From the IMG/VR virus record IMGVR_UViG_3300025684_000012: DNA of 64,000 nucleotides. The stretch is one strand, 5' to 3'. A model generated the notes under the pieces. It did no database searches, was not told the DNA's origin, and worked only from the letters and a program-made list of their open reading frames with translations. This DNA is from a virus. A program made the translations under genes and the position numbers. Shown piece after piece: positions 29,374 through 63,002 of the stretch (positions are counted from its first letter, which is position 1; every line of letters starts with the position of its first letter).

Positions 29374-29380
29374 ATCAATC

Positions 29381-30745: not shown

Positions 30746-30746
30746 A

Positions 30747-33783: not shown

Positions 33784-33873
33784 TCTCTCTCAGTTCTCAT
33801 TCAATATAGGTATTATACATGTTTGAGTGACAAAGACAACGCTTTTTTTCAATTATTTTGTGTTTTTTTCGAT
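33784..33873 (-). repeat. Early-promoter repeat, copy 2
   Basis: Near-identical to 29381-29490. Confidence 0.85.
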
Positions 33874-34496
33874 TATTTTTGGCTGATCATGTAGTCAAAT
33901 TCTCTACATTTTATGCAGGATCCGCAATGATCGAGGGATGGGTGCACGCAGGTATGCACTAATTGCTGGATGTGCTCAGGTAAAGTATTCCACTGCTCGA
34001 GCTTGGACATATGGGCAAGAGGCGCAGACATTGTGGTGTGTATCCCAAGCCTACCTAATACGCGCTCTATACTACGAAAATGGTCATCCACCCAATCGGT
34101 ATGCTTATCCCCAAGTTCATCCCCCGCAGTGATTATGCCGCCATTGTACCCATAGTAAATGTTTCGTATCTGTGGGTTATTCAGGTTAACCAGTTGCGCT
34201 ATATTAGTCCAGATGAAGAACATGGGAGGAGCAGACTGCCCCCACAATTTGTTCCAGTGGTCGACGGTCTGTTGTCTGTCGCAACAGGGGTCCGGATTGA
34301 AGTATTCTATAATGCGTAGGTCAACATCCAGTGCTTCCGCTATATTCTGTGCGGCCTGTAGTTGCTGTTGCCAGTGTGCACCCAACTCAACGTGAAAGCA
34401 AAGAGGTTTAAAACCTTGCTGTATGCAGTGATACAGAGCTGCTGTTGATTCAGTGCCCCCGGATAACGGTATGATACAATCGTAACTAGTCTTCAT
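33873..34496 (-). CDS. queC: QueC-like PP-loop ATPase (7-cyano-7-deazaguanine synthase family)
   Basis: PLSGGTEST PP-loop, APL..MSK, C-terminal C...CGSCIKC zinc site; divergent. Confidence 0.65.
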   Translation of the reverse strand: MKTSYDCIIPLSGGTESTAALYHCIQQGFKPLCFHVELGAHWQQQLQAAQNIAEALDVDLRIIEYFNPDPCCDRQQTVDHWNKLWGQSAPPMFFIWTNIAQLVNLNNPQIRNIYYGYNGGIITAGDELGDKHTDWVDDHFRSIERVLGRLGIHTTMSAPLAHMSKLEQWNTLPEHIQQLVHTCVHPSLDHCGSCIKCREFDYMISQK

Positions 34497-47251: not shown

Positions 47252-47500
47252 AGTCTAAATCATCTACCCACAGAGTGAATATTTTATACAGCCCATATAT
47301 AACGGGGGCCACCAAGAGCACTACAACTAAAATTATCTCACTCATCCAGCTTGTTTCCATAATAGTCGTGTGTACCCATACGGTAGTTTTTACGTCTTTC
47401 TGAGGTTTCGGCGGCTGCAGCGAATGAAGCTACCACCCAAATCCCCAGAACGGCTAAACCAAAACCCGCAGCCATGATGTTGAGTAAAATATCAATCATG

Positions 47501-47713
47501 TTATGCCACCTCTTCAGTAAGAGGAGCAATAAAGGCATACTTCGGTTCACGGCACCATTGACCGATTTCGTCAAACCCCAACAGAACGAACCCATCAAGT
47601 GGATCAGTGCCGTCTTCAAACTCTACTAGGTCGTAACCAGGACGCATGCTGGTGACTTTGGTGATATCGACGATCTCAACTGAAAATTCCATAATATATC
47701 TCTCTCTGTTCAA
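47501..47713 (-). CDS. Hypothetical early protein
   Basis: Downstream of early promoter at about 47720-47752; true start likely MEFSV. Confidence 0.5.
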   Translation of the reverse strand: MNRERYIMEFSVEIVDITKVTSMRPGYDLVEFEDGTDPLDGFVLLGFDEIGQWCREPKYAFIAPLTEEVA

Positions 47714-47797
47714 TGTAGGGTAATTATCTCATATTCAAGGCAACAGGGCAACAGTTTTTTTCGATATTTTTGAAAATAATTTATACCCTTAATGCCC

Positions 47798-47989
47798 TTA
47801 ATACCCGCCGGTCTTAAACCAGCCCTTACCCTTCAACTGAAATCCACCGGTAGTCGTGATCACCTTAACGTGATCTGTTTCCTGTTCGCACACAGGGCAC
47901 GGCAGTTTCATTTCAGACTTAGTTTCACTCATACTCATACGAAAGTCGCTAACTCCATAACACAGCGAACATCTAAAACTGTACGTCAT
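47798..47989 (-). CDS. FmdB-family zinc-ribbon protein
   Basis: Y.FRCSLC..CPVC..GFQLKG.GW.KT.Y. Confidence 0.8.
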   Translation of the reverse strand: MTYSFRCSLCYGVSDFRMSMSETKSEMKLPCPVCEQETDHVKVITTTGGFQLKGKGWFKTGGY

Positions 47990-48005
47990 CGTTTACTCCA
48001 CATCA

Positions 48006-48227
48006 TTATTTCTTCAATATAGTTTCAGAAATTTGTCCATCATACAGTCCATACTGTATTGTGCTTCTGCCCCTCTTGGTCACTAACTTAGCGCCATCAA
48101 ACGAGGTAACGCGTTCCTTTCCCTTCTTCTCTATATCGTTTTTAAATTGCCCCAGGGAATTATAGGTTTTCATCTTGTATTCCTCGTTAATGTTTAAAAG
48201 GTGAGGGAGACGACCGAGAATCCTCAA
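48006..48227 (-). CDS. Hypothetical protein
   Basis: True start likely MKTYNS after GAGGA. Confidence 0.5.
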   Translation of the reverse strand: MRILGRLPHLLNINEEYKMKTYNSLGQFKNDIEKKGKERVTSFDGAKLVTKRGRSTIQYGLYDGQISETILKK

Positions 48228-48384
48228 TCCTTATCCTCATTATCAACCTACGCGTACGCCATAGGAATTACAATCTCAACTGAATAACCACTATCGTAGT
48301 CTGTCACACTACAATCATTTACCCTACTGCCCGTAGGCGTAGGCGCCACAGTGTGCATCGCTGAGAGGCAGGGCGGGTCACTTG

Positions 48385-48798
48385 TTACTTCCCTTTCTGT
48401 TCTACAAACTCATACAGCTCAGCAGCCTTCTTCTTGATTGCTTCTGACGTTGGCATTTCAGGAAATGCTTTCTCAATTGTACTTGCGAGTTCAGTCAATC
48501 GTTCGAGCGTTAAACGCTCATCGACTCGACCATCAAGCATATTGAGTTTTTCGCAGATTTCGTTGTGCAATGTCCAGAAAGCATTCATCTGTACCTCGTA
48601 CTTCGACATTTCAGCATCTCGTGCCATTTCTAGCACTTTAAAACGTAGTTCATATGGATTAGACATAATTGTCTCCTTGTTGTGTGTGTGTTGTGTGTGT
48701 TTTGGAATTTTTAGAGTCATTCCACGACTTTGGAATTTTATAGTGCACCCTCTTCCGAATATGTCAGAAACCACTTTGGAATACTTCGGTTTGTCCAC
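48385..48798 (-). CDS. Conserved hypothetical protein
   Basis: True start likely MSNPYELR (GGAG RBS); KA.ELY.FV C-terminus. Confidence 0.65.
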   Translation of the reverse strand: MDKPKYSKVVSDIFGRGCTIKFQSRGMTLKIPKHTQHTHNKETIMSNPYELRFKVLEMARDAEMSKYEVQMNAFWTLHNEICEKLNMLDGRVDERLTLERLTELASTIEKAFPEMPTSEAIKKKAAELYEFVEQKGK

Positions 48799-49274
48799 TT
48801 CATATCAAACCTGGATTGTTTAGACTGGTAGAATTTTCGGTAAGAGGCGACAGGATCACCTTCTACGATACACTCAGGTTGTGTCTTAAATGCTAGCTTG
48901 AATGCTGTAAACCCACCTCGAGGAATGTTCACAGGGGCGCGCGAGAGCGCAATACCGAACTTCTCCCACGACTTGTGTACCTTACCGTAACGGTGCGTAT
49001 ACTCCCTACACAACTCCATCCAGTGACGATAGTGCCACAGATAGTTTGAGTCCGACTCCATAGTCCACAGAGTAGAGGGATGTTTGGGGTGAGCGATCTT
49101 ATATAGGTCTTCGTTACCACCATCCAGAATACGGTGGGCGGTACATAGCATCTGAGCAGATTCCAACGGCATTTTAACGATGTGCTTATCACACTGAGAA
49201 CGCGCAGAGTCGATTGCATCAGGGAACCTGAATGCTCTCTTCTCATCATACTCGATACCAAATATATTCATCAC
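48738..49274 (-). CDS. Pyrimidine-dimer glycosylase-like (DenV superfamily) protein
   Basis: CDKH.VKM.LE.AQML.T.H, H..HP...W, LC.EY..RY...H. Confidence 0.75.
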   Translation of the reverse strand: MMNIFGIEYDEKRAFRFPDAIDSARSQCDKHIVKMPLESAQMLCTAHRILDGGNEDLYKIAHPKHPSTLWTMESDSNYLWHYRHWMELCREYTHRYGKVHKSWEKFGIALSRAPVNIPRGGFTAFKLAFKTQPECIVEGDPVASYRKFYQSKQSRFDMKWTNRSIPKWFLTYSEEGAL

Positions 49275-49297
49275 ATGCTCCTCAAACCATTACAAAA

Positions 49298-49317
49298 TGG
49301 GCGCCCTAGGGCGCCCA
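49298..49317 (-). terminator. Perfect 20-bp palindrome, probable terminator
   Basis: TGGGCGCCCTAGGGCGCCCA followed by TTTTG on minus strand. Confidence 0.7.
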
Positions 49318-49325
49318 GCTCCAGC

Positions 49326-50300
49326 TTACGCAGCGGTCGCGAACTCAACCGCCTTCTCGATCGCCTTGATCTTACGGGTTTGGTTAGTGCCAAACCAAGC
49401 TGATTGCATACGCTTATCTGCGCTGGTACCCATGTGGTGATCAGTCAAGTACGTGACTGAGTTGAATGCCTGCCACCACGAACCTTCACCAAACTTAGCT
49501 CCAGGCTGAGTCTCCAACGCTGAGAACGCTGCCTGACCATTCTTAGTTAAGTCTGCGATCGTCTTAACCTGGGTCTGCTTGTTCTTAGGTTGATATGTGC
49601 GTGGGAACACTTCGTTGTAGTACTGGATCAAAGACTCAGCGGTAAAACGCTTAGACGCTAAGAAGCTGGCAACTTCCTTATACTGCTCAAACTTATTGTG
49701 AGCAATACCAAGCTGATCTTTGACCATGTCCGCATTGAACTGTGAGCGGTGACCAACTTTAACACCATTTTTAGCTTGACCAGCAATCGCCATCGATAAC
49801 GTGTTGTTACATACAACGCGGATCGGGGAGAAGCGAACGTCAATTGATTGACCATACTTGTGTGGGTTAGACAGCAGCAAGTATGAATCTACCTGGTCGC
49901 CGCCAAGGATATCAAAAGACTCCTTAACCTTAGCTAGACACCAAACGATACGGCCGTCATCCAACGAACCAGCAGTGTGCATCTCCATGTCACCAGCCAT
50001 AACATACTCGTTGAAGAACTCGAATGCATCAGCATTCTGGAGTGGCTCCCAGTTTGGACCGACGTTAGTCAGGATTCTGTTATCTGAAGTGCGTACAAGA
50101 GACTCTTGACCAGTAGCCACTTTCACTCCACCAAGCTCAACGAAAGAGGGAACTTTCTGAACTTTCCAGTCGCATCCAGCCATCTCCATCATCTGACGGG
50201 GAGAGAGGTCATTCGATACTCTTGTACCGAGGCCGTGCCACGGTGTTTCACCAGCGTATGCCATTTGAGCCTGACCGTTAACCATTTCAATATTGTGCAT
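49326..50300 (-). CDS. DUF932-family protein
   Basis: PWHGLG, TAGSL..G..VW.LA, P.RVVC.NTL, W...N.VT...DH. Confidence 0.88.
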   Translation of the reverse strand: MHNIEMVNGQAQMAYAGETPWHGLGTRVSNDLSPRQMMEMAGCDWKVQKVPSFVELGGVKVATGQESLVRTSDNRILTNVGPNWEPLQNADAFEFFNEYVMAGDMEMHTAGSLDDGRIVWCLAKVKESFDILGGDQVDSYLLLSNPHKYGQSIDVRFSPIRVVCNNTLSMAIAGQAKNGVKVGHRSQFNADMVKDQLGIAHNKFEQYKEVASFLASKRFTAESLIQYYNEVFPRTYQPKNKQTQVKTIADLTKNGQAAFSALETQPGAKFGEGSWWQAFNSVTYLTDHHMGTSADKRMQSAWFGTNQTRKIKAIEKAVEFATAA

Positions 50301-50342
50301 AATGTATTCCTCTTAGGGGTTAATTTCTCAATTGTTGGGGTA

Positions 50343-50372
50343 ATTATAAGGGATTGTTTGTGTAAAGTCAAC
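50343..50372 (-). promoter_or_regulatory. Sigma70-type early promoter (TTGACT-17-TATAAT)
   Basis: Consensus boxes; similar ones at 18067-18096, 54209-54237, 59978-60007, 60946-60975. Confidence 0.75.
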
Positions 50373-50670
50373 CGATTTAGCTATATTTTTTTCGGCAATA
50401 TTACGTATTTTTCATCCTGTAGTAATCGCGGACATTGTCCCAACCACATTCAGTCAATCTAAAGGTGCCAGCTGGTAGGATCCAGGTTTCGCCGTTTTTG
50501 AATCGTAGATACATCATAAAAAAGCCCTCATTCATTCAATATAAGGTATTGTACTATATTGACGAAGTGAGGGCAACAGTATCCATCGTTTTATTTGAGG
50601 ATTAATAAGAAGTGCTAGATTTGCGATCGTAGGCACGACTCCACGATCGATGGCTCTAGCTGGCCGCCTG

Positions 50671-51225
50671 CTACGGTCGTTTTAAACGACCTAAGGTAGC
50701 GCAGGTTCGTTGTAATACTGTAGCAACCCAATCACTATCTACATCTAGATATGTTGTGTATTGTTGTTCCTGGGAGTGTTGATTTAACAAGGCTATAATG
50801 TCGTTATCCACCTGTTGTGACTGTTGTTCGTTATGTAGCCGTCCATTATCACTAAACTGATGACAACGTGGTATAACGAAGTTGACACGGGAGTACATTG
50901 TATGAACTTCCCAGATCAAGTCATCCAACACTGAAGAATATTTATCGTCGTTCCACAGGTGTCTATACACTATACCCAACAAAGATGGTGAATCAGTCAC
51001 TACAACGTCGACCTTGCCTTTGAGACGATTAATTCTATGATGTTGTTGGGCTGCTACCAGGAACTGATCCTGGAGCAACCTTTCACAATCCGACCAAATT
51101 AAATCTTTAGCAAATTCGCTTACATACTCTACAGCGTAACCTTTCTTCGATAGTTCAGCGTACACTTGAGCAGCTAATGTGCTCTTGCCTACACCTGGAC
51201 CTCCGAATAGATTAACTACCAGCAT
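50671..51225 (-). CDS. P-loop nucleoside/nucleotide kinase (AAA_28-like)
   Basis: GGPGVGKST, EFAK, VTDSP. Confidence 0.8.
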   Translation of the reverse strand: MLVVNLFGGPGVGKSTLAAQVYAELSKKGYAVEYVSEFAKDLIWSDCERLLQDQFLVAAQQHHRINRLKGKVDVVVTDSPSLLGIVYRHLWNDDKYSSVLDDLIWEVHTMYSRVNFVIPRCHQFSDNGRLHNEQQSQQVDNDIIALLNQHSQEQQYTTYLDVDSDWVATVLQRTCATLGRLKRP

Positions 51226-51721
51226 ACAGCTTGTCGTCCATCTTGCCAGTGCCATAGTCACCACTATAATTGTGTAGTGCTTCAGCCTCCCAGATTAACA
51301 TCTGACCAACGCGAGTACCCTTCTGGATAATAGCGCGACCCGAGTTGTTGTGAATCACACCAGCCATCACACCCGAATAGCCGGTATCGTATAGCCCTGA
51401 AGTCAGGAACAGCCCATTGCGGTTCAGGGTAGAACGAGTGATGATGAACCCAGCTTCGCCCTCACCAATCATTACAGAGCCCTCAGCCAAGAACTCGTAC
51501 GATGTACCAGGCTCGAGCTCGAAGTTACCAAACTCATCTGGTTTAATCTCTACTGAACCACGATGCTGTTTGATATCCTCGTTGATATGAAACAGCTCGT
51601 CGTGCTTGATCGCAAACAACTTGTCAATCTTAACATCAACTGCATTCGGTTGTACTTGGCTTTGTTCAATAATAGACAAAGCCGAGCGAGTTTGATCACT
51701 CGCAATATTTTTCATACTCAT
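51212..51721 (-). CDS. Trimeric dUTPase / dCTP-deaminase family protein
   Basis: QPNAVD, RSTLNRNG, YDTGYSG, GTRVGQ. Confidence 0.85.
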   Translation of the reverse strand: MSMKNIASDQTRSALSIIEQSQVQPNAVDVKIDKLFAIKHDELFHINEDIKQHRGSVEIKPDEFGNFELEPGTSYEFLAEGSVMIGEGEAGFIITRSTLNRNGLFLTSGLYDTGYSGVMAGVIHNNSGRAIIQKGTRVGQMLIWEAEALHNYSGDYGTGKMDDKLYAGS

Positions 51722-51723
51722 TG

Positions 51724-51933
51724 TTATAGTCCCAATACCCTACTAACATCTTGATTCTCGTTCAGAGAACCTCCACTGCGCAAATGATCGACTAGCTGTT
51801 CAAAGTAAAAGGATGCTTCCTCTTTACCCGACAGCTTCAGCTGATCACTGCAACGGGTAAGAAACCGTACGGTTCCCATACCAGTATTATCATTCATAGC
51901 CGCTGGTTTCATTCTAGCGTTTCTCTGATACAT
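51724..51933 (-). CDS. Hypothetical protein
   Basis: In operon. Confidence 0.55.
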   Translation of the reverse strand: MYQRNARMKPAAMNDNTGMGTVRFLTRCSDQLKLSGKEEASFYFEQLVDHLRSGGSLNENQDVSRVLGL

Positions 51934-51936
51934 AAT

Positions 51937-52248
51937 CTAATCCACATCCACTTCTTCGGTAGACTTGTTCTCCGGATACCCTAACGAGTTGAGTAAGAAC
52001 ACACAGTAGTGCATGATCTTAATTACATCCTTAGGATTATACCCAGCCTTTTTACCGAAGCGCTTATAGTATTTCGAGATGTTGCTCAGAAAAGCCTCTT
52101 TCTCAATACCCATGTCGGTCCAGTCGTCGACTACGTCGCGACCATTCTCGTTGGTGTAGTGAGCGTCATATGTGGAGTTGATGTACTCCATAAATTCGCG
52201 AACAATCTTAGCTTCGTTACGTTTATAGTTTATGCCCATTCTTACCAT
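51937..52248 (-). CDS. DUF3310 / T7 gp1.7-like nucleotide kinase domain protein
   Basis: TY..HY, N..KY..R.GKK......D..K..HY. Confidence 0.7.
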   Translation of the reverse strand: MVRMGINYKRNEAKIVREFMEYINSTYDAHYTNENGRDVVDDWTDMGIEKEAFLSNISKYYKRFGKKAGYNPKDVIKIMHYCVFLLNSLGYPENKSTEEVDVD

Positions 52249-53099
52249 CCCTCACATAGCATGTCTATATAATCGATATTGTTAAATACCGCTTCATCTA
52301 GTACGGGATTATCGCATAAAGGTAGATCGAAGTCAACTTCTTTTTCAAACTTACCATCAACCAATCCTGAAGGACTGTTGTCAAACTCCATGGCGTGGAG
52401 ACCCAACCATACAGCAGCTGACGAATCCCAGGTATCGATGTACCGATGATACTCAGAAACCAGTTCGATTTCATTTGGACCATCTACCATCCCAAGAAAG
52501 TGAATCTTCTGACCGTTGCGCTTGAACAAATCCAGGATACCGTTGTCATCAAGAATCTGCATGATCTTCCAGCGCGCTAGGAACCGTTGCAGCTTGTTAT
52601 CGCGCTCGACTCCAAATGCTAACGGAGCTCCTAGGATAGATACCCCAACATAATCGACGAGCTCAGGATTATCAGCAGCCCATTCGAACGCACTAATATA
52701 GTCATGCAGATCACATTCCTCCGACTGAGGAACGAAGAATGTACCGAACCCAGCTTGCTTGAGTTCTGGTGCCATTCTGATAGCAGCATCAATAGTCTTT
52801 TGTGCTGGCTCGCCTGGATAATCAGACATAACGATATAATCGGCACCGATGTTGTTACCCATCTCGATTAGCTTTTCCGATGGGTACATTTCGCGTCCCT
52901 GCTTATACATCTCGAACGCCGAGTTGTCCATAACTATGCTGCAGTTAGCTCGAGCTTTTTGTTGCACATAAAAATCAGTATATGACTGATCCTGCTCAAT
53001 CAAATGAGCTAGCGTGAGGTGAAATGGACGGTCGGAACAGTACAGGCTTAGATAGGCAGTTGGACTGATGTGAGCAAAGTCAATCATAATATTCTCCAC
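52242..53099 (-). CDS. dpdA: TGT/DpdA-like TIM-barrel (7-deazaguanine insertion enzyme, DpdA3-type candidate)
   Basis: IVMDNSAFE, D..V..D.P, FVPQ, IHFLG, IDTWDSS motifs parallel TGT/DpdA; lies within queE/queD/folE locus. Confidence 0.62.
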   Translation of the reverse strand: MENIMIDFAHISPTAYLSLYCSDRPFHLTLAHLIEQDQSYTDFYVQQKARANCSIVMDNSAFEMYKQGREMYPSEKLIEMGNNIGADYIVMSDYPGEPAQKTIDAAIRMAPELKQAGFGTFFVPQSEECDLHDYISAFEWAADNPELVDYVGVSILGAPLAFGVERDNKLQRFLARWKIMQILDDNGILDLFKRNGQKIHFLGMVDGPNEIELVSEYHRYIDTWDSSAAVWLGLHAMEFDNSPSGLVDGKFEKEVDFDLPLCDNPVLDEAVFNNIDYIDMLCEGW

Positions 53100-53113
53100 A
53101 ATAAATTCATTAT

Positions 53114-53152
53114 ATTATACAATAAAAAAGGGGGTTTGTCAACCCCCCTTTT
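53114..53152 (-). promoter_or_regulatory. Terminator hairpin overlapping a sigma70 promoter for the dpdA-like operon
   Basis: AAAAAAGGGGGTT-TGTC-AACCCCCCTTTT hairpin contains -35 TTGACA (53137-53142); 17 bp spacer; TATAAT at 53114-53119. Confidence 0.75.
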
Positions 53153-53153
53153 C

Positions 53154-53372
53154 TTAGTAACTATCCATGAAGTTAGTTACGTGCATCTCGAAGTTTTTGG
53201 TGTTACCAAATTTCTTCTTATACTTCTTTTTAAGCTCTGTATGGTCAATGTTGGTATCACCCATATGATGGAACACGAACTTACGCTCTTCGTGCTCTTT
53301 ACCTTTACCTTCCAACACAGCCTCAACGGAAGCGATTAGATCTTTTAGATCATCTTTAGCATTCGGAGTCAT
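53154..53372 (-). CDS. Hypothetical protein
   Basis: In operon. Confidence 0.55.
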   Translation of the reverse strand: MTPNAKDDLKDLIASVEAVLEGKGKEHEERKFVFHHMGDTNIDHTELKKKYKKKFGNTKNFEMHVTNFMDSY

Positions 53373-53381
53373 TATTATATC

Positions 53382-53753
53382 CTAGTTGTTGTCGACAGTG
53401 TACACTGCAGTTGCCCCATTCTCATTATCTTCTGATATGGAGATGCGGAGGTTCCTACCAGGGTATTTATCTAAAACATAGTCTGAGAGGTCATCACATA
53501 GCATCTCACACGATTTATAGTCGAGCTGTAAGGTACCCTGGTCGTATAGACCTTCCAACTCTCTCTTGAATAGAATAAATTCTACATCGCGATCGTCATG
53601 GAACACCTGCATCTCCACCTCGAAGTGGAACATATGGCGGTGTGGATGTCCCAAGAACGATACTTCGGCTAACTTAGGATCAGTCAAAGCAGCGGGGTAC
53701 TTATGTATACCCTCTTTCTGAAAACGTACCCATATTGTCTTATCTACTTTCAT
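53382..53753 (-). CDS. dpdL: QueD-paralogue T-fold protein (DpdL-like CDG decarboxylase candidate)
   Basis: EGIH, LGHPHRHMF (LxxxHRHxF), SCE, SED.ENGA; lacks the QueD CxxxHGH motif. Confidence 0.65.
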   Translation of the reverse strand: MKVDKTIWVRFQKEGIHKYPAALTDPKLAEVSFLGHPHRHMFHFEVEMQVFHDDRDVEFILFKRELEGLYDQGTLQLDYKSCEMLCDDLSDYVLDKYPGRNLRISISEDNENGATAVYTVDNN

Positions 53754-53763
53754 AACTACTTCC

Positions 53764-54177
53764 TTACACTGTAACGTTTAACTGGTGAAAACATTCGAAT
53801 GCTAATCCGGTTTCGTGTTTGAATGCTTCCTTCTCCCACGGAGCGTTCTCGTACGAAGTGTTGGAATGATTCTTAGCTTTCCACATAGTCTTACCTTGTC
53901 TCTCACGAAGCTCCTTACGAGCATACTGTTTAACGTGAATCATCTCATGACACACAGTACTAATTAGGTCGAACAACGACAGGTCGCGCTGAATAGACAA
54001 CGTATACTCGCGGTCCGTTTCCTGTAAACAATACCCATAAGCATCGATCTTACCAAGCTGGAGAGTGATGTCTAATGTTCTCATCCGAGGCATCAGTTTA
54101 CGTATACACCAATAAACGGTCTTCTCAGCTATTTCACGCTCTTTAACCCGTCCACCAATAACAGTCACTGTATTCAT
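53764..54177 (-). CDS. HExxH metallopeptidase-like protein
   Basis: CHEMIHVKQ ... PWEKEA. Confidence 0.7.
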   Translation of the reverse strand: MNTVTVIGGRVKEREIAEKTVYWCIRKLMPRMRTLDITLQLGKIDAYGYCLQETDREYTLSIQRDLSLFDLISTVCHEMIHVKQYARKELRERQGKTMWKAKNHSNTSYENAPWEKEAFKHETGLAFECFHQLNVTV

Positions 54178-54304
54178 AATATAAGCTCTCTCAATTGATT
54201 ACAGGTACATTATACGCAAATCTAGAAGAAAGACAACAGGGAGCAACGAAAAACAATTCGTTTGAAATCAACAGGTTACAAATTATTTGCCTTTTTGCTG
54301 ATTT

Positions 54305-54631
54305 TTATACTTGAGTGAATCCCTTCCTATTCATCCGGATCGACGTTTCGTAGGGATACTGGTCGTGGTTGAGAGGGGGGTTGAGCATACGTATGATCAT
54401 CCCTTCTTCAATTTCACCCTGAATGCGTGATATCTCGCGAGGCTCCTGGACCCACCTAAACTGCCACTTGTGACCAACAGAATTCAATTGACCACGGAAC
54501 CGTGTCCATTTTCCGTTAGGGAACTTAGCGTAGTTGCGATGATTCCACTCAAGCTGTTGCAGTGACTTCCCGCTGCTTCCCACATACATCAGAGAATCAT
54601 CTTCCGCGTAACATCCGTAATGACCAATCAT
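54305..54631 (-). CDS. GIY-YIG-like nuclease
   Basis: GHYG........YVGSS, E...I....P.LN. Confidence 0.6.
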   Translation of the reverse strand: MIGHYGCYAEDDSLMYVGSSGKSLQQLEWNHRNYAKFPNGKWTRFRGQLNSVGHKWQFRWVQEPREISRIQGEIEEGMIIRMLNPPLNHDQYPYETSIRMNRKGFTQV

Positions 54632-54840
54632 ACTCTAACCACCGCATCTTTGTCACGCAGTAAGATGTCCTTCGCCAGGTTGTCCAATTTGTAAGCATTA
54701 GCAGAAACTGCTATAGCTAGAAACTTTCTGGCTTGTGACTGGTATTGAAAACTACTGATCATTTGGTTAACCAATTCGCGTTTCTGGTCAACATCTTTGG
54801 TGGACCAAACTTGTTGGGCTAATTTATCAAAATTTCTCAT
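54628..54840 (-). CDS. Hypothetical protein
   Basis: AGGAG RBS. Confidence 0.55.
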   Translation of the reverse strand: MRNFDKLAQQVWSTKDVDQKRELVNQMISSFQYQSQARKFLAIAVSANAYKLDNLAKDILLRDKDAVVRV

Positions 54841-54859
54841 TATGTAACACTCCTATTAA

Positions 54860-55507
54860 TTAGGCTACAAGGGATAGTGTACCTGCTTTTCCGACATGAG
54901 TAAACGCTTCTCTCCAATTATTTTTCGAGAATGTCACGCAGGCATAGTGAGAGCGTAACAACGGCTTCTTGGCGTTGGAAACAGGCTTGATCACTAACAA
55001 GCGCGACACCTTGGGAGAGTCTGCATACTTGTCGAATAACTCAGGATCCGTAAAGTTGGATCCGAGCTTCTTCAGCTCAGTGGTGTGCTGGTCGGTAACA
55101 ATATCATACCCAGCCATATTGTCGATCCCAAACACACTCCCTCTGTCGTAGAAGCAAAAGAAAAACTCACCAGGACCAACTTGCACATTGCCCGGCTTGT
55201 AATTCATTAAAGCATATTCGGTAATAGCGTATAGGGGGTGCGATGTAATGGCGGGACTTAGTAAATCGCTCACTTGATGCAGCTTGCCATCATCTACGAC
55301 ACCAACAATCTCATGTACTTGAGCCACTGTGAGAAACATAGTGATGTCCTCAGTGGTCAATGTATTCTCATGAGCTGCCCCACACAATATACCGGTTAAC
55401 TCACGAACGAAGATCGGATAGTCTTGGGAGTTCTTAGGATTACACAATCCTTCCCGTGATTGTAAAAATTCGTCGACTCGGTTATAAACAACAGAATAAT
55501 TGATCAT
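54860..55507 (-). CDS. Putative PD-(D/E)XK nuclease-like protein
   Basis: VGPGE ... GYDI......ELK; likely start MINYS. Confidence 0.5.
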   Translation of the reverse strand: MINYSVVYNRVDEFLQSREGLCNPKNSQDYPIFVRELTGILCGAAHENTLTTEDITMFLTVAQVHEIVGVVDDGKLHQVSDLLSPAITSHPLYAITEYALMNYKPGNVQVGPGEFFFCFYDRGSVFGIDNMAGYDIVTDQHTTELKKLGSNFTDPELFDKYADSPKVSRLLVIKPVSNAKKPLLRSHYACVTFSKNNWREAFTHVGKAGTLSLVA

Positions 55508-55576
55508 AATATAACTCGCAGCAGTGTGTATAGTAAAGGACCCTAAGGAGACTCGCCCCAATAGGGTCCGACAAAA

Positions 55577-56251
55577 CTATCGGTTGATGTTAGCCATCAC
55601 TTCTTTACGTAAGTCGTTATCAGCTTCACCAAACCTACCGAGACAGCAAGCGGTGACAGTCGACGACTGGGTATCTTTGATCCCACGTTGACTGACGCAT
55701 GTGTGACCAGCTTCAATCACAACCATTACATCATCGCTACCCGTAATAAACGCAATCGCGTGGGCAATCTGCTGGTTCAATCGCTCTTGAACCTGAGGAC
55801 GCTGGGCGAAGTATTGAGTGATACGGTTTAGCTTAGATAGACCCAACACCTTCTCGCCTGGGATGTAAGCAATGTGAGCTTGACCGATGATAGGACGTAG
55901 GTGGTGTTCACAATCGGAGTACAAGGTGACGTTCTTCTCTAGTACGAATTCGTCTCCACTACAGAACTTATTCTCAACAGTGGTGCACTTAGGGAACGTG
56001 TCGTACCGTAAGCCAGAGAAGATCTCATCGACGTACATCTTAGCTACGCGCATTGGCGTCTCTTCTAACGAATCGTCTGTTAGATCAAGTCCTAGGACTT
56101 GCAACATCTCTTCAGTTAGCGATGCGATCTTATGAATCTTGTATTCCCGATCCTCTTTAACGAGGGGGGTGATAGGAGTGTTGATACCGAGGGTATCGAG
56201 GTGCTTGTTAACTAGACGACCTAGTTCAGCATTAGATTTAGACATTAACAT
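55577..56251 (-). CDS. folE: GTP cyclohydrolase I
   Basis: ETP.RVAKM, CEHH, GLSKLNR, RPQVQERL, H.C...RG. Confidence 0.96.
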   Translation of the reverse strand: MLMSKSNAELGRLVNKHLDTLGINTPITPLVKEDREYKIHKIASLTEEMLQVLGLDLTDDSLEETPMRVAKMYVDEIFSGLRYDTFPKCTTVENKFCSGDEFVLEKNVTLYSDCEHHLRPIIGQAHIAYIPGEKVLGLSKLNRITQYFAQRPQVQERLNQQIAHAIAFITGSDDVMVVIEAGHTCVSQRGIKDTQSSTVTACCLGRFGEADNDLRKEVMANINR

Positions 56252-56342
56252 ATTCCTTTCGAGTTAGTTTAACGTCAGCAAAAAGGGCAAGGGCTGACAC
56301 CTTGGCCGGTATACTGTACCGGAAAACCACTATTATATATCA

Positions 56343-56504
56343 TTACAACTCTTCGATTATACCCAGAGTTTCTGCAAAGATCAACAGGGCACCACCAATA
56401 AAAATTGATCCTAAACAAAACGCTACACCAGCTGCAATCCGCACAGCTGATTTGGCTAGGCTGACGTAGAAATGAAATAATCCTGGATCTTTACTAGCTG
56501 TCAT
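56343..56504 (-). CDS. Small membrane protein (53 aa; not in ORF track)
   Basis: MTASKDPGLFHFYVSLAKSAVRIAAGVAFCLGSIFIGGALLIFAETLGIIEEL; overlaps queD stop. Confidence 0.65.
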   Translation of the reverse strand: MTASKDPGLFHFYVSLAKSAVRIAAGVAFCLGSIFIGGALLIFAETLGIIEEL

Positions 56505-57087
56505 TGTTTACTCTCCGTAATGCGTCGAGCGGAGCTTCCCAATCCCACTTAGGTTTCTTGAGAAGTAATTCTGCACCTGCAGACTGCAGTGCATTAGCGC
56601 TACGCAGAGCACTATCACGATCAGCTTCTAGGAATCCTGAATTACGTTCATGCTCGAACACCTTGACCTTCTCCACGAACACACGGTTATCAGTCTTCCA
56701 CATAATATAGTGGTTAACGTGCTCCCATATGAACAACGAAGACATCTCCATCGATACACCACTAGGCAAGATGCGCAGCTCAGCCAGAGGACCACCTGGT
56801 TGAGCAGCACCCTCGATATTAGACAACCGAGGATCATCAGCAGGCAACACCGTAACATGATCGAAGTAATATTCCAAGAACTCCTTAACCGGTTTGAGGT
56901 CTGGGCCGAACGGAAAGATCCATCCGTGTTCATCAACCTGACCGCTAAACGTTAGTTCAACTGATCTATCGTAACCATGAATAGATGCGCAATGTCCTGG
57001 AGTACCATCAGGGTTAGTATCGAACCACTGAGCATGCCCACAGGGCAGGTTCAGGAACTTCTTAACACTTTTAATTTCAATAGCCAT
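56494..57087 (-). CDS. queD: 6-carboxytetrahydropterin synthase
   Basis: H.Q, CASIHGY, FDH..V...DDP, V.EHE.NS. Confidence 0.88.
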   Translation of the reverse strand: MAIEIKSVKKFLNLPCGHAQWFDTNPDGTPGHCASIHGYDRSVELTFSGQVDEHGWIFPFGPDLKPVKEFLEYYFDHVTVLPADDPRLSNIEGAAQPGGPLAELRILPSGVSMEMSSLFIWEHVNHYIMWKTDNRVFVEKVKVFEHERNSGFLEADRDSALRSANALQSAGAELLLKKPKWDWEAPLDALRRVNNDS

Positions 57088-57096
57088 TTTCTTATC

Positions 57097-57648
57097 CTAT
57101 ATACTTTCTTGTTCAGAGTAATCACCAAACGCTTTGTTTGGTTGCTCCCACCAGAAGCACAGGTCCTGTACTTCATTGTCATAATAATCCCCGACGAGAT
57201 CACACTTAAAAATGCTATGCGCGTTTTCAAATAGACTTACTGTCAGAATATTATCGTATTGTACACCAAGAGATACTAATTCGTCAACAAGCCATCCGTA
57301 GTTTCTTCCAGATATTACGCCAGCTTCGCATAGAATAAATTTAGTGTACTTGCTACCATCATAGTTGGCTGATATGTGTTTCCATGTATCACGCAATCGC
57401 TCTTTGTAGAACTCAGGGTCTTCGCCTGGATCAGGTACATGGATACTATCGCTGTACATAGCCACCCCTTGAGTGGATAGACCGTGCGAAATGATGGTTG
57501 AAGCTATCCCCGAGAAGTCAGGAGAAACGGTCAGCATTAATGTGTTTTCAGCATCCATAAACTTAGGGTACTTACGTTTGATCTGGTACACTAGTTTCTG
57601 AGCCATAGCCGTTTCAACTGGCTGACTTATAAAGTGCAGCCGCCTCAT
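57097..57648 (-). CDS. Divergent type I phosphoribosyltransferase
   Basis: VSPDFS, FILCEAGVISGRNY (degenerate PRPP loop), C-terminal FWWE. Confidence 0.6.
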   Translation of the reverse strand: MRRLHFISQPVETAMAQKLVYQIKRKYPKFMDAENTLMLTVSPDFSGIASTIISHGLSTQGVAMYSDSIHVPDPGEDPEFYKERLRDTWKHISANYDGSKYTKFILCEAGVISGRNYGWLVDELVSLGVQYDNILTVSLFENAHSIFKCDLVGDYYDNEVQDLCFWWEQPNKAFGDYSEQESI

Positions 57649-58097
57649 GATACCTTCTCCCACGGCATGACCACCCAACGTGGGTCATCTAGTCGTAAAG
57701 CGGTTACATCAACTCGCGTCCTGCTATCAACCTTCTCTACTAGAGTAGCAAATGTGATATTAGGGTTCTCACAGATATCGTATCCATAAGCGGTCCGTAA
57801 CTGCTCGACCGTAGTGCCCGTATCGTTGATGTCATCAACAAATACAACATGCTTTCCATCGAGTATAGAGTCTTTAATTTCTTGGTTGTGCTCTTGGCAT
57901 TGCCCATCACGAGTCTGCCACGTAATCACTTCCATGGGACGTTCGAGCTCATGTGATAAATGTAATGCCGGAACAATACCACCACGTTTGATTCCGACAA
58001 TCAAATCAACATGGCGCGTCTCTAGATGATAAGCTAGGTGCTTGACCATCGTGAGTATATCGTCATAGTCGAGTGTTATACGGTTCTTTAACTTCAT
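57645..58097 (-). CDS. Purine phosphoribosyltransferase (Gpt/HGPRT-like)
   Basis: GIKRGG..PA, VFVDDINDTGTT, WVVMPWE. Confidence 0.9.
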   Translation of the reverse strand: MKLKNRITLDYDDILTMVKHLAYHLETRHVDLIVGIKRGGIVPALHLSHELERPMEVITWQTRDGQCQEHNQEIKDSILDGKHVVFVDDINDTGTTVEQLRTAYGYDICENPNITFATLVEKVDSRTRVDVTALRLDDPRWVVMPWEKVS

Positions 58098-58098
58098 A

Positions 58099-59001
58099 CT
58101 ATGTTCCTATTGCATTACCAAATAAATACGTGTGTACGCGAGCAGATACGTTATATCCCCGCTCAAACGCCTTGACGGCCACATCACCAGCTGAAGCTAA
58201 CTGCTCCTCTTCTCTGGCACCTGTAGGCATCACCCAAATGGGATAATCTACAAGTTGTTCACGGAATAAGTCGATAACCTCTTCCATATCAACCCACTGC
58301 TCTTCTGGCGCACCAACCACGAACTTTAGCTGGCCCTTATCAGTCAACCTAGCATACTCAGCCACATACTCTGGCTTGATAGCTCTACTCCTCTTCTCAC
58401 CCGCCACTGTCCACAATTTAGGACTAACAGATAAGAATAGCTCGATACCCTGATCCTGGAAGTACTGCCAAGCTTCAATGAATTCACTGGTCAGCTTCTG
58501 AGTACCGTTGGTCTCATACGTTACAGAAGCTGGAGCGTTATCATCCTCTAGAAACAGACGTATGATATCAATCGAGTTCTGCTGAGCATGTTTCATTAAA
58601 GGTTCACCACCCGTAAAACACATATGCATATGTTGCTTCGAGCGAGGATGCATGAATAATCCTTCCGGATTAGACTCTGTGCGCAAACAGTCCTGTAGGC
58701 GCTGCTTAATCTGTTCGGGGGTCCCCTCTTGCATCAGGTGTCGGAACTTCTTCGACCACGTGTAGGACGAGTCGCATCCTTTCTCAAAAACCGGTAGATC
58801 TTCTACACGTGAGATATCGGTGATATCGATACGCTCATATGGTAGGTCGTAGGTTTCAGGTTTAGTTGGCTCATCCTGGCCGAATCCGTCACATTGCAGG
58901 TTACACAAAAAGTATCTCAGCCATAGCGTAGGCACACCTGTGTAATTTCCTTCACCTTGAATGGAGTTAAATATCTCACTATAGCGAGTGGATCTAGACA
59001 T
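58099..59001 (-). CDS. queE: 7-carboxy-7-deazaguanine synthase
   Basis: EIF.SIQGEG, CNLQC..(insert)..CDS, TGGEPL, ETNG, SPKL, R.H..LFGN..GT. Confidence 0.93.
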   Translation of the reverse strand: MSRSTRYSEIFNSIQGEGNYTGVPTLWLRYFLCNLQCDGFGQDEPTKPETYDLPYERIDITDISRVEDLPVFEKGCDSSYTWSKKFRHLMQEGTPEQIKQRLQDCLRTESNPEGLFMHPRSKQHMHMCFTGGEPLMKHAQQNSIDIIRLFLEDDNAPASVTYETNGTQKLTSEFIEAWQYFQDQGIELFLSVSPKLWTVAGEKRSRAIKPEYVAEYARLTDKGQLKFVVGAPEEQWVDMEEVIDLFREQLVDYPIWVMPTGAREEEQLASAGDVAVKAFERGYNVSARVHTYLFGNAIGT

Positions 59002-59449
59002 AATATTTCTCCGTTATGATATCAAAATACGCATCGGTTATCGGTTTCCCACGATACTTGTAGAATTCTCGCTTTTCGTTAATACGATACAAAATACGTT
59101 CCAAATTAATTCCATGGTCCCTACTAACAGGAGACCAATCCTTATATAATACAGCATCGAACACATTCCAGTCAACTACTCTTTCATCTGGCTTGATGTC
59201 ATAACCACGAGCTTTTAGCTCATCGATCAGTTGGTGCCACCGCTGATGCAACCATTTACCTTTATTGTAGAAGAAGGTAACGTGTCCTTTGTTGAGAGTG
59301 TATTTAGCAGGTATGTTATCCAACACCAATCCCTTCTTGCTGGCCTTAGACCGCCTAAGAGAAGCGTGTACCATAGGAAGCTCACGGTACTCGGCCATAA
59401 GATGTTGATCAGTTAATGTTGTGACGTCGATTGTATTGATGCGTGTCAT
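58994..59449 (-). CDS. denV: Endonuclease V, pyrimidine-dimer DNA glycosylase
   Basis: MTRIN......L.DQHLMAEYRELP, L..GHV.FFYNK. Confidence 0.93.
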   Translation of the reverse strand: MTRINTIDVTTLTDQHLMAEYRELPMVHASLRRSKASKKGLVLDNIPAKYTLNKGHVTFFYNKGKWLHQRWHQLIDELKARGYDIKPDERVVDWNVFDAVLYKDWSPVSRDHGINLERILYRINEKREFYKYRGKPITDAYFDIITEKYYV

Positions 59450-59892
59450 TACTTACACGCTCCGTAAACAACCTCTTCGAGTGCGTACGCCTCAATTTCC
59501 CATGGGTGTTCAGCATAGGGTACACCAACGTATGCTTTACCATCGAAGATTTGTTTGGTGGTTAGCTGTTGAGAACCGTCTTGTCCTTTGCGGAATACAA
59601 ATCCCTTATTGACTAAACGGCCTTCAGCTAGCTGACGCGCGTGAACCATTTCGTGAGCAATATTAATCATTAGATCCTTAGTGGGGACTTTACCAGCTCG
59701 ATCATTGCGTGCAATTTCGATGCAAACGTGATCCTCATCGCCATTCGCATAACCACCAGCACCAGCAGCACACTCTTTGACTATTTCAACATCAACGAGA
59801 GCATCGAACGCGTCTAACTGTAAATAGTCATATACGCGCTCAATGTATGCGATCAAGCTCTTGCTTTGTGTTCCAATAATATCTAGATTCAT
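59449..59892 (-). CDS. HExxH metallopeptidase-like protein
   Basis: AHEMVHARQ ... PWEIEAY. Confidence 0.7.
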   Translation of the reverse strand: MNLDIIGTQSKSLIAYIERVYDYLQLDAFDALVDVEIVKECAAGAGGYANGDEDHVCIEIARNDRAGKVPTKDLMINIAHEMVHARQLAEGRLVNKGFVFRKGQDGSQQLTTKQIFDGKAYVGVPYAEHPWEIEAYALEEVVYGACK

Positions 59893-60036
59893 AATATATC
59901 TCCAAACTGATTCAATACAAGCTGGGAAATCACGTAGGAATTATTACCAATTTTCGAAAATTTCCAACTTATAAGGAATTATACCGCAGTATGTTGAAAT
60001 AGTCAACAAAAGGATTGGGGGGAGGGATAGGAAAGG

Positions 60037-60247
60037 TTCCCTACGGAGCATGGAGATTGACATTAAGTTGTTGGCTGACGGTGATGATGTTTGCTTGGAC
60101 TTTGCCTGAGTCCAGACTGCGATAAAAATACTACGCTGGTGGGCTGCAGTTTACAAACATTGCGCTGTTCGCGATTTTTTGAATCGCCGGACATTTTTAA
60201 GCGCTCGTCATATTGGTCTAATGTTTCTCCATGCTCCTCGTAGGGAA
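60037..60247 (+). ncRNA. Candidate structured non-coding RNA (about 210 nt)
   Basis: Terminal 20/22-nt inverted repeat enclosing several nested helices; G-U pairs favour the + strand. Confidence 0.5.
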
Positions 60248-60257
60248 TATCATTGTA

Positions 60258-60333
60258 TGGTGGAGTCAGAGGGAATCAAACCCACGACCTTCTGCGTGCA
60301 AGGCAGACGCTCTCTCAACTGAGCTATGACCCC
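60258..60333 (-). tRNA. tRNA-Ala(UGC)
   Basis: GGGGTCA/TGACTCC acceptor with G3:U70; anticodon arm TCTGC-CTTGCAC-GCAGA; encoded CCA; 76 nt. Confidence 0.95.
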
Positions 60334-60352
60334 GTTAACTATACCTATTTAG

Positions 60353-60613
60353 CTATAGCTTAATTGCTAGTAATATGAAGATCCCGAATAGTATCAAATT
60401 AGTAAAAAATATTAATACAGCGAGTATTGTGTGGTACCATATCCACCGCGTCTTGTATGCGTTTTCTAATGAAAGGTCATCCGGATCTATTTCCGACTCC
60501 ATTGTTGGAAGAGTGTGCATTATTGCTTGATCCACCTGGTTCTTCTCAACTGGAGTGTTAAACAAATTTAAAAATTTCTGCCATAAACTCATAACTTTCT
60601 GCCATAAACTCAT
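60353..60613 (-). CDS. Membrane protein
   Basis: C-terminal TM; ENAYKTRWIWYHTILA. Confidence 0.65.
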   Translation of the reverse strand: MSLWQKVMSLWQKFLNLFNTPVEKNQVDQAIMHTLPTMESEIDPDDLSLENAYKTRWIWYHTILAVLIFFTNLILFGIFILLAIKL

Positions 60614-60617
60614 AACG

Positions 60618-60920
60618 TTACCACTCTCTTAGTATAGTACTAAGAATCATGAATCCCGATACCGTGTTTAACATAATCAGCGCGCGATCTTTCCATATAA
60701 CAGACACCCATGTCCATAGTATGATTCCAACAAACCCTATTGTTAGGTCATACATTCGGAATTCTGGACCAGCAGCTCGCATCGCCAACGATGCCAATAC
60801 AAATATCGACGCGATCCATTTAAGGTACCAATCGAAGTCTTCAGGATACCAGTTACGATCGGGCTTTGTACGGCCGTCAGCTCTTACTGTTGGATCTCCA
60901 CGACCAGCCTTAGGTGCCAT
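60618..60920 (-). CDS. Small membrane protein (3 TM)
   Basis: DWYLKW.AS, W.DRALI.LN; start after AAGGA. Confidence 0.7.
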   Translation of the reverse strand: MAPKAGRGDPTVRADGRTKPDRNWYPEDFDWYLKWIASIFVLASLAMRAAGPEFRMYDLTIGFVGIILWTWVSVIWKDRALIMLNTVSGFMILSTILREW

Positions 60921-60975
60921 ATTTAAATCCTTTCTTAAAGAAGTCATTATACTACCAAATCGCCACTATGTCAAC

Positions 60976-61009
60976 AAATAGGCGGGGGGATTCGAAAATC
61001 CCCCCTATT
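60976..61009. terminator. Hairpin terminator abutting early promoter
   Basis: GGGGGATT-CGAA-AATCCCCC with flanking AAATAG/CTATTT. Confidence 0.75.
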
Positions 61010-61297
61010 TATCACTACTGAGCATAGATGTCAAAATCATCGACAGTATCGCAATGGCTCTCAATCGAAAGCACACTAGGATCCCGTTCTAAATCTTGAA
61101 CAAATACATAAGCTGTGTGGGGGGAAGCAAAACTTCTCACCATAGGCTCTGCAAAGTTATCATCACGAACGTACCGCACAATTATGATCTCCATAATAGT
61201 TTACTCCGTTGATGATTAGAACTCAGTTCAAGTCAGTTAGATTAATGCATTGGTGAGGCAATAAAGAAGAATAGCGACCCTCTTATTTATACGCCTC

Positions 61298-62728: not shown

Positions 62729-62813
62729 TCACTTTATTCATCATATATTATACTTTAACACTGGGCCATTATACCATACCGCACACCATAAGTAAACGTT
62801 TGATCAAAAATAA

Positions 62814-62981: not shown

Positions 62982-63002
62982 AGCAATTTCCTTAGTTTAT
63001 GA

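Follow-up and report, generated by a model that had tools for sequence, protein, structure and literature searches.

The window analysed here, a 64,000-nucleotide stretch of viral DNA (IMG/VR record IMGVR_UViG_3300025684_000012), encodes at positions 50,671 to 59,001 a set of 7-deazaguanine biosynthesis genes interwoven with genes for putative phosphoribosyltransferases (PRTases), kinases and deoxynucleotide hydrolases. All genes of the locus lie on the minus strand (Table 1). The phage is an uncultured marine T4-like myovirus: elsewhere the window carries baseplate wedge and tail genes and genes for a gp32-type single-stranded DNA-binding protein, the ribonucleotide reductase subunits NrdA and NrdB, PhoH and a DenV glycosylase. 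A megablast search with the locus matched no cultured phage, none being close at the DNA level. On homology, we assign the locus to the phiST-type DpdA3/DpdL modules, a known kind of system for replacing genomic guanine with 7-deazaguanine, because it combines the DpdL motif, profile kinship with DpdA3 and the aspartates common to DpdA proteins. The original prediction, made from the letters of the window and its open reading frames (ORFs), had likewise described a 7-deazaguanine DNA system with interwoven nucleotide-handling genes. Every gene was found where that prediction had placed it, and both the DpdA3/DpdL homology and the gene content bear the description out.

Table 1 Genes and features of the 7-deazaguanine locus and related genes of the window.
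Feature	Coordinates	Strand	Evidence
QueE-like radical SAM 7-carboxy-7-deazaguanine (CDG) synthase	58099..59001	-	phrog_2076 2.5e-51; motifs
PRT1, Gpt/XGPRT-like type I purine PRTase, accessory	57645..58097	-	PF00156; Gpt alignment
PRT2, virus-specific PRTase-fold protein, altered phosphoribosyl pyrophosphate (PRPP) loop	57097..57648	-	AlphaFold2 (AF2) + Foldseek
QueD-like 6-carboxytetrahydropterin (CPH4) synthase, CxxxHGY variant	56494..57087	-	PF01242 2.9e-13; phrog_2389 1.1e-28
FolE, GTP cyclohydrolase I	55577..56251	-	PF01227 4e-58
DpdL, QueD paralogue, proposed CDG decarboxylase	53382..53753	-	LxxxHRHxF; tblastn
Sigma-70 consensus promoter-like site	53114..53142	-	TTGACA-17-TATAAT, 12/12; pattern match only
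DpdA3-family protein of tRNA-guanine transglycosylase (TGT) fold, predicted transglycosylase, 285 aa	52242..53099	-	Foldseek; hhalign
DUF3310 protein, possible small nucleotide kinase	51937..52248	-	PF11753 25.8 bits
dUTPase/dCTP deaminase (DCD)-fold dNTP pyrophosphatase-like enzyme	51212..51721	-	PF22769 2.5e-12
P-loop AAA_28 nucleoside/nucleotide-kinase-like protein	50671..51264	-	PF13521 3.6e-11; phrog_2107
NrdA	36135-38147	-	phrog_84
NrdB	35117-36109	-	phrog_86
Divergent QueC-family protein	33873..34496	-	PF06508 4.4e-10, N-terminal part only

The central protein of the module matched no Pfam, PHROG or NCBIfam family. Sequence-only searches of PDB chains with it and with PRT2 gave nothing meaningful, and the placement of both among solved structures comes from predicted structures alone. 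The AF2 model of the 285-residue protein (pLDDT 92) retrieved only TGTs as its top PDB matches in Foldseek (E 8e-9, probability 1.0, TM ~0.5). Its family profile aligns over the full length with DpdA3 of Cellulophaga phage phiST (CGPG_00065; hhalign 97.4%, E 1.6e-11) and with DpdA of Flavobacterium phage immuto_2-6A (hhalign 98.1%, E 9.4e-14). The corresponding hidden Markov model (HMM) detects the immuto protein (3.4e-16), the phiST protein (7e-10) and CP220 gp056 (1.2e-6), and gives no match to the DpdA1 of phage 9g. D58 (in DNSAFE) and D225 (in WDSS) are invariant in 35 homologues, align with the DSGAF and CDSSS motifs of 9g DpdA1, and are common also to the phiST, immuto and CP220 proteins; we take them to correspond to Asp102 and Asp280 of TGT. 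These comparisons identify the protein as a member of the DpdA3 family, with predicted transglycosylase activity.

The family is large: it comprises more than 1,800 proteins, the listed ones coming from metagenome assemblies, and 435 encoding stretches lie in IMG/VR viral contigs. The phiST-type DpdA3 family is thus abundant in marine viromes. The window protein is strongly acidic (pI 4.3, net charge -28, compared with pI 9.4 for the DenV of the same phage); acidity was dropped as a sign of no DNA binding because the DNA-acting DpdA1 of 9g is also acidic (pI 5.6). A 283-residue gene following PRT2 in related locus L007, suspected to encode a DpdA3, does not.

Upstream of DpdA3 in the module, the 123-residue product of the DpdL gene carries LGHPHRHMF at residues 34-42. 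This fits LxxxHRHxF, which in place of CxxxHGH defines DpdL, a candidate CDG decarboxylase (Cui, Hutinet et al., NAR 2023, PMC10516641). It shares 56% identity with the DpdL of ACP17 and 33% with that of phiST (tblastn; at the DpdL position), and its motif is kept in the related loci of a motif survey. For gene content, window proteins were compared with 81 related loci, the denominators here and below being the loci with enough flank. DpdL lies upstream of DpdA3 in 65 of 67 such loci.

The remaining biosynthetic genes are those of CDG synthesis. QueE has the SIQGEG motif and the three cluster cysteines (CNLQC...GC), and NCBIfam QueE models match it only below their cut-off. QueD carries CxxxHGY, as do its counterparts in phiST, immuto, BUCT-ZZ01, RHph_I1_18 and ~35 IMG/VR loci, and in all DpdA3-type phages examined; the motif survey found canonical CxxxHGH in the QueD of phage 9g, a DpdA1 phage. 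The second histidine of CxxxHGH, a zinc ligand according to Cui et al. (PMC10516641), is consistently tyrosine in the DpdA3-type phages examined. QueC is not in the que cluster. A divergent QueC-family gene lies ~19 kb off, beside a SegE homing endonuclease gene and NrdB, and its product has SGGTES and Cx7CxxCxxC motifs, with residues 7-64 alone matching PF06508. The order NrdA, NrdB, SegE, QueC-like is repeated in related contigs L102 and L103, and neither the 50,697 cultured phage records nor a complete 283-kb DpdA3 phage relative contained a match to the QueC-like gene. Were its product an active QueC, 7-amido-7-deazaguanine (ADG) or preQ0 could be made as well.

The genes for QueE, PRT1, PRT2 and QueD are tightly coupled. 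The TAG stop codon of QueE is followed after one base by the ATG of PRT1, PRT1 and PRT2 overlap at ATGA, and nine bases separate PRT2 from QueD, which agrees with the translational coupling of QueE to two PRTases described in the original prediction. The promoter-like site sits immediately 5' of the DpdA3 gene, which is followed by the DUF3310 gene, a 69-residue ORF, the DCD/dUTPase-fold gene and the P-loop AAA_28 kinase gene. MazG was not found among the window ORFs scanned. An Rfam search of positions 47000-64000 (E <= 1) returned no riboswitch in the folE leader (56262-56337, minus strand); its only matches were a tRNA at 60261-60333 (minus strand) and a chance-level PrrB/RsmZ small RNA at 53122-53249.

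The neighbours that most consistently accompany DpdA3 are the dUTPase-fold gene, present downstream in 67 of 67 loci, and the DUF3310 gene, present in 65 of these 67. The dUTPase-fold protein scores 47.6 bits against PF22769 and 75.5 bits (3e-21) against the dUTPase model PRK02253, below the cut-off of 130. It keeps dUTPase motifs 1-4, including the motif-3 aspartate (QPNAVD, ITRSTLNRNG, GLYDTGY and GTRxGQ, conserved in 73 family members). It has no deaminase-type glutamate and is missing the glycine-rich motif 5, and its C-terminus reads YxGxYGxGK, versus the RGxxGFGSTG of dUTPases. Its strong homologues in cultured phages are confined to D479, Ahp1, RHph_I1_18 and Bakedbeans, all of DpdA3 type.

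The DUF3310 protein (103 residues) exceeds its Pfam cut-off narrowly (25.8 against 24 bits in PF11753), compared with 81.5 bits for residues 122-184 of T7 gp1.7. It has no BLASTP similarity to gp1.7 (196 residues) and is missing the N-terminal half of that protein; it is a possible small nucleotide kinase. DpdA3::DUF3310 fusions occur in RHph_I1_18 and in protein P0058. Homologues of the DUF3310 protein number 460 records, mostly from cyanophages with no que genes nearby. The P-loop kinase, which the original prediction had counted among the enzymes of the route, is not a conserved part of the module: it was present in none of the 67 loci whose sequence extends far enough downstream past DpdA3, and its family is widespread in unrelated phages, including jumbo phages. 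The Pfam family of this kinase is also found beside DpdA3 in CP220 and near DpdA3 in immuto, and the window and immuto AAA_28 kinases have no BLAST similarity despite their common Pfam family.

In other lineages both positions beside DpdA3 are filled by unrelated kinases (DNMK, AAA_18, AAA_28) and unrelated hydrolases (MazG, PRA-PH, HD). D479 and Ahp1 have the order DpdL, DpdA3, a T4 gp1-type deoxynucleoside monophosphate kinase (DNMK) and a DCD-like gene, and RHph_I1_18 has its DpdA3::DUF3310 fusion followed by a DCD-like gene. The order is MazG, DpdL, an AAA_18 P-loop kinase and DpdA3 in phiST, and an HD+AAA_33 protein, DpdA3 and an AAA_28 kinase in CP220. In immuto_2-6A, a PRA-PH/MazG-like gene lies two genes upstream of DpdA3 and the AAA_28 kinase three genes downstream. 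For the window and its related loci, the hydrolase-type neighbour is the dUTPase-fold gene and the kinase-type neighbour DUF3310. In phage 9g, which has a DpdA1 and partial substitution, no gene for a kinase, a dNTPase or a PRTase adjoins DpdA.

PRT1 was called a canonical Gpt-like enzyme in the original prediction, and this description holds. It scores 53 bits (2.8e-14) against PF00156, where the cut-off is 26, and its best solved relatives are the archaeal purine PRTase of P. horikoshii (1vdm) and xanthine-guanine PRTase (XGPRT). Alignment with E. coli Gpt shows that the RGG of the pyrophosphate (PPi) loop, the DDxxDTG of the PRPP loop, the lysine and the W...PW[ED] motif are all kept, and with them the Gpt residues for PPi, PRPP and 6-oxopurine. 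PRT1 falls below the XGPRT equivalog threshold (NF006613, 66 bits against a cut-off of 138), making it Gpt-like without equivalog status, and a TWQTRDG loop is peculiar to the phage PRT1 clade.

Of 20 loci that run from QueE to DpdA3, 12 contain the gene, directly after QueE in 11 of these 12. PF00156 genes were absent from the complete genomes of Vibrio phages D479 and Bakedbeans, Aeromonas phage Ahp1_CNU-2021 and Rhizobium phage RHph_I1_18, all of which have DpdA3, DpdL and the dUTPase-fold gene (and a clear QueE in three of the four). PRT1 is therefore a dispensable, accessory gene. Among 50,697 phage records searched by tblastn, 30 matched: phages of a Cellulophaga group (phiST, phi13:1 and phi19:2), of the Flavobacterium immuto group and of the Campylobacter CP220 type, together with Synechococcus phage BUCT-ZZ01, two Brevundimonas phages in which the PRTase gene adjoins FolE, and three short fragments. 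Cui et al. (PMC10516641) report the first three of these groups as fully substituted. PRT1 homologues in cultured phages are thus almost confined to phages bearing FolE or que genes, including all three fully substituted groups. The PRTase lies between QueE and FolE in immuto and adjoins a radical SAM/SPASM gene in CP220; the order in BUCT-ZZ01 (QueE, PRTase, x, QueD, FolE) is the same as in the window. The literature searched on these systems contained no mention of a Gpt-like phage PRTase.

Two of these phages deserve separate description. In Brevundimonas phage vB_BpoS-MaInes (L105, ON529866.1 43884-56339), genes for DNA polymerase, NrdB, NrdA, a dNMP kinase (DNMK), FolE, a xanthine PRTase and small unannotated proteins follow one another, a run which may be another 7-deazapurine-type cluster, with the PRTase tied to FolE and beside ribonucleotide reductase. 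BUCT-ZZ01 (L094) encodes QueE, PRT1, QueD, FolE and DpdL, the last flanked by two glycosyltransferase-like genes and an Rv2179c-like exonuclease gene; its genome has no match to the DpdA3 profile.

PRT2 has no Pfam or NCBIfam match. Its AF2 model (pLDDT 91) finds 6-oxopurine PRTases (HGXPRT and XGPRT) as top Foldseek matches (E 8.5e-7), and an Atlas structure matches PF00156 clusters with a TM of 0.71. As the original prediction had noted, its PRPP loop is degenerate: the sequence FILCEAGVISGRN is invariant in 23 homologues, and EAGVISGRN retains one acidic residue, with EA replacing DD/ED; SPDFSG replaces RGG. PRT2 was found in one of the 20 loci spanning QueE to DpdA3, and its relatives include proteins of cyanophages S-SSM7 and S-RSM4 and of metagenomic phages with no que genes nearby. 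It is not a specific part of the module. The phiST genes CGPG_00044 and CGPG_00046, which flank the PRTase of that phage, were ruled out as PRT2 relatives. Judged by the refuting condition that the original prediction had set, PRT1 and the dUTPase-fold protein qualify as specific parts, while DUF3310, the P-loop kinase and PRT2, which also occur outside such modules, do not.

The closest characterized counterpart is phiST. Its DNA contains 302,000 2'-deoxy-7-deazaguanosine (dDG) per million nucleotides and no dG, and complete substitution of G is known from DpdA3 phages only (Cui et al., PMC10516641). The two systems share the same five functions (FolE, QueD, QueE, DpdL and DpdA3), have no QueC in the cluster, and agree in the DpdL motif LxxxHRHxF, the QueD motif CxxxHGY and the full-length profile kinship of DpdA3; both also have genes for a Gpt-like PRTase, a P-loop kinase and a dNTP pyrophosphatase. 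They differ in that phiST is a siphovirus, that DpdA3 identity is only ~27%, and that phiST uses MazG and AAA_18 neighbours where the window has the dUTPase-fold and DUF3310 genes. In addition, the phiST PRTase lies ~17 kb from the DpdA3 cluster, whereas PRT1 of the window is coupled to QueE; the window has PRT2 as an extra PRTase-fold gene; and phiST DNA has been measured, while the window phage is known from its genes alone. The DpdA1 system of 9g (dG+ at ~25% of G) is more distant. It shares FolE, QueD and QueE, and its TGT-fold DpdA has both aspartates, but it differs in having QueC/ArcS-type genes and a CxxxHGH QueD, in having no DpdL, and in a DpdA that the DpdA3 HMM does not detect.

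Other systems resemble the locus in logic. In the T4 hydroxymethylcytosine pathway, gp56 acts as dCTPase, gp42 as dCMP hydroxymethylase and gp1 as dNMP kinase. The proposed likeness is that a dNTP hydrolase, an enzyme changing the base of a dNMP and a dNMP kinase are encoded together, and the kinase of D479 and Ahp1 is itself a T4 gp1-type DNMK. The likeness is one of logic alone, since the base-changing step has no homology and the 7-deazaguanine steps are only proposed. The Z-genome of cyanophage S-2L (PurZ, DatZ, MazZ), a parallel drawn by the original prediction, likewise has one base replaced throughout and dedicated dNTP hydrolases to remove the canonical nucleotide. Its components are not homologous to those of the locus, and a PurA-like synthetase builds Z at the nucleotide level, as established experimentally. 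The tubercidin pathway (PMC6112128) pairs a QueC-less FolE/QueD/QueE set with a purine-type PF00156 PRTase, and differs in its UbiD decarboxylase, GMP reductase and Nudix hydrolase and in having no TGT-fold enzyme. Its PRTase, TubE, is a CDG:PRPP phosphoribosyltransferase that rejects 7-deazaguanine (Liu et al. 2018, PMC6112128).

In the literature, the complete exchange of guanine for 7-deazaguanine in phage DNA is assigned to DpdA3 acting on finished DNA, an activity that has never been reconstituted. Our preferred reading of the gene context, plausible if still short of probable, is that the base is instead swapped at the level of the nucleotide pool, with DpdA3 at the centre and PRT1 recycling guanine. 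FolE, QueD and QueE would convert GTP to CDG, DpdL would decarboxylate CDG to 7-deazaguanine, and DpdA3 would transfer 7-deazaguanine onto deoxyribose and release guanine; homology with phiST, where G is fully replaced by dDG, supports these steps, and those that follow are inferred. The dUTPase-fold enzyme would hydrolyse dGTP to dGMP, and DpdA3 would exchange the base on the deoxynucleotide, feeding the dNTP pool as in the making of hydroxymethyl-dCTP by T4. A small kinase (DUF3310 here, DNMK, AAA_18 or AAA_28 elsewhere) would then re-phosphorylate the product, and host nucleoside diphosphate kinase (NDK) and the phage polymerase would complete the route. Each exchange would free one guanine, which PRT1 most likely returns through GMP to GTP, on which FolE acts. 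Such guanine salvage could account both for the enrichment of PRT1 among fully substituted phages and for its dispensability, host Gpt or Hpt being able to take its place. The likeliest base product is dDG, although this is not certain.

In the most specific form of this scheme, DpdA3 would be the first TGT-fold enzyme to exchange the base of a free deoxynucleotide (dGMP), working with a dGTP pyrophosphatase and a dNMP kinase. Complete replacement of G, be it by dDG, dADG or fdPreQ1, would precede replication, in conflict with the published model, and the PRTase would close a guanine-GTP-CDG loop. Stated so precisely, the proposal is doubtful.

The argument for an exchange in the nucleotide pool lies in the recurrence of unrelated kinases and unrelated dNTP hydrolases beside DpdA3 in unrelated lineages, which is the signature of a nucleotide-pool pathway. 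Hydrolysis of dGTP to dGMP, base exchange, re-phosphorylation and polymerisation form the simplest scheme in which no conserved gene is left without a role. The scheme agrees with three reports in Cui et al. (PMC10516641): complete substitution is confined to DpdA3 phages, expression of DpdA3 plus DpdL in E. coli led to no DNA modification, and ADG nucleoside was found in the cytoplasm of CP220-infected cells (cited there). Several points weigh against it. We know of no member of the TGT superfamily that acts on a mononucleotide, and the catalytic aspartates of DpdA3 are common to the DNA-acting DpdA1. The dUTPase-fold protein may be a plain dUTPase, given its ordinary motifs 1-4 and a dUTPase as its highest-scoring named match. 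DUF3310 is generic, being common in que-less cyanophage surroundings, barely above the Pfam cut-off and without the N-terminal half of gp1.7. The 80 metagenomic loci come from related phages and are not independent, so their common gene order is partly inherited, and kinases and dNTPases are frequent in the early regions of large phages. The kinase and hydrolase substrates named in the scheme are putative, and the divergent QueC-family gene makes the identity of the base less certain.

Much of this would be expected if, as the published model has it, DpdA3 is a very efficient DNA transglycosylase acting on finished or nascent DNA, its neighbours are ordinary nucleotide-metabolism genes and PRT1 salvages guanine. 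We regard this as a strong rival, somewhat less likely than an exchange in the nucleotide pool. Post-replicative insertion has been proposed for all DpdA families (Cui et al., PMC10516641), and the homology of DpdA3 to TGT and DpdA enzymes that act on polymers, with the same two aspartates, speaks for it. So do the frequency of DUF3310 and the AAA_28 kinase outside 7-deazaguanine systems, the resemblance of the dUTPase-fold protein to dUTPase, and the dependence of the metagenomic loci on one another; guanine salvage accounts equally for a PRT1 that is enriched and dispensable. Activity of DpdA3 on DNA is, however, only predicted, and expression in E. coli gave no modification. The model also leaves unexplained why unrelated kinases and hydrolases recur in Cellulophaga, Flavobacterium, Campylobacter, Vibrio, Aeromonas and Rhizobium phages, why DpdA3::DUF3310 fusions exist, and why the dUTPase-fold clade is restricted to DpdA3 phages.

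The route of the original prediction, by which PRT1 or PRT2 would join CDG or 7-deazaguanine to PRPP, with kinases, NrdAB and polymerase following and the dUTPase-like enzyme removing dGTP, is unlikely. It gains from TubE, a CDG-specific PRTase within a QueC-less FolE/QueD/QueE pathway, and from the company PRT1 keeps: coupled to QueE here, among que genes in BUCT-ZZ01 and immuto, next to FolE, DNMK and ribonucleotide reductase in MaInes, beside a radical SAM/SPASM gene in CP220, and nearly confined as a family to phages with 7-deazaguanine genes. NrdAB is present as well. A PRTase can hardly be the key step, however, when 8 of 20 related loci and four complete genomes with DpdA3 and DpdL do without PRT1. 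The PRPP loop of PRT2 has no second acidic residue, and PRT2 is also found where no que genes are nearby. PRT1 retains the aspartate corresponding to that of Gpt near the purine N7, a role familiar from 6-oxopurine PRTases. Such a route also gives no clear job to DpdA3 and DpdL (the latter being proposed to act on the free base), and the kinase families at the corresponding position elsewhere are deoxynucleotide kinases. T4 gp1-type DNMK and T7 gp1.7 act on deoxynucleoside monophosphates, and a deoxy-level intermediate therefore fits better than a ribonucleotide that needs NrdAB. Of the original interpretation, the identity of the system and its tie to a PRTase family are supported, while genomes without a PRTase contradict the PRTase/kinase/NrdAB route as a general mechanism. 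We consider it very improbable that the locus modifies no DNA and serves a queuosine-type change of tRNA or a free 7-deazapurine nucleoside metabolite. FolE, QueD and QueE with a PRTase do also build nucleoside antibiotics, and the phage is known here from sequence; against this stand the size of the family and the homology of DpdA3 and DpdL to genes of phages for which measurements on virion DNA showed full substitution.

Kinase and dNTPase partners of varied folds, together with a PRTase family nearly confined to these phages, make the alternative to the post-replicative model testable. If the nucleotide-level swap is true, it would be a new reaction type for the TGT superfamily and a guanine counterpart of the T4 hydroxymethylcytosine pathway, and would supply a small group of genes with which DNA fully substituted with 7-deazaguanine could be made. 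Should DpdA3 act on DNA instead, the locus would be one more unexceptional member of the phiST-type family.

Several other genes were noted in the window, all on the minus strand. A clear DenV-type pyrimidine-dimer glycosylase-like gene (58994-59449, 5.3e-16) lies beside QueE, and a second, weak one (2.4e-4, below the cut-off) lies at 48738-49274. Small HExxH/SprT-like putative metalloproteins are encoded on either side of the module, at 53764-54177 (weak Pfam matches) and 59449-59892 (HEMVH, phrog_16532). The gene at 61298-62728 encodes a 476-residue di-haem cytochrome c peroxidase/MauG-family protein (PF03150, 4.7e-21). An auxiliary run at 23119-31418 includes GT25 and GT8 glycosyltransferases, a radical SAM/SPASM protein (24093-25079), a Nol-like carbamoyltransferase (26292-27815) and PhoH. 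Within the same interval, a gene for a 191-residue protein (27874-28449) occupies the position of the NT5C 5'-deoxynucleotidase gene in the syntenic loci L102 and L103.

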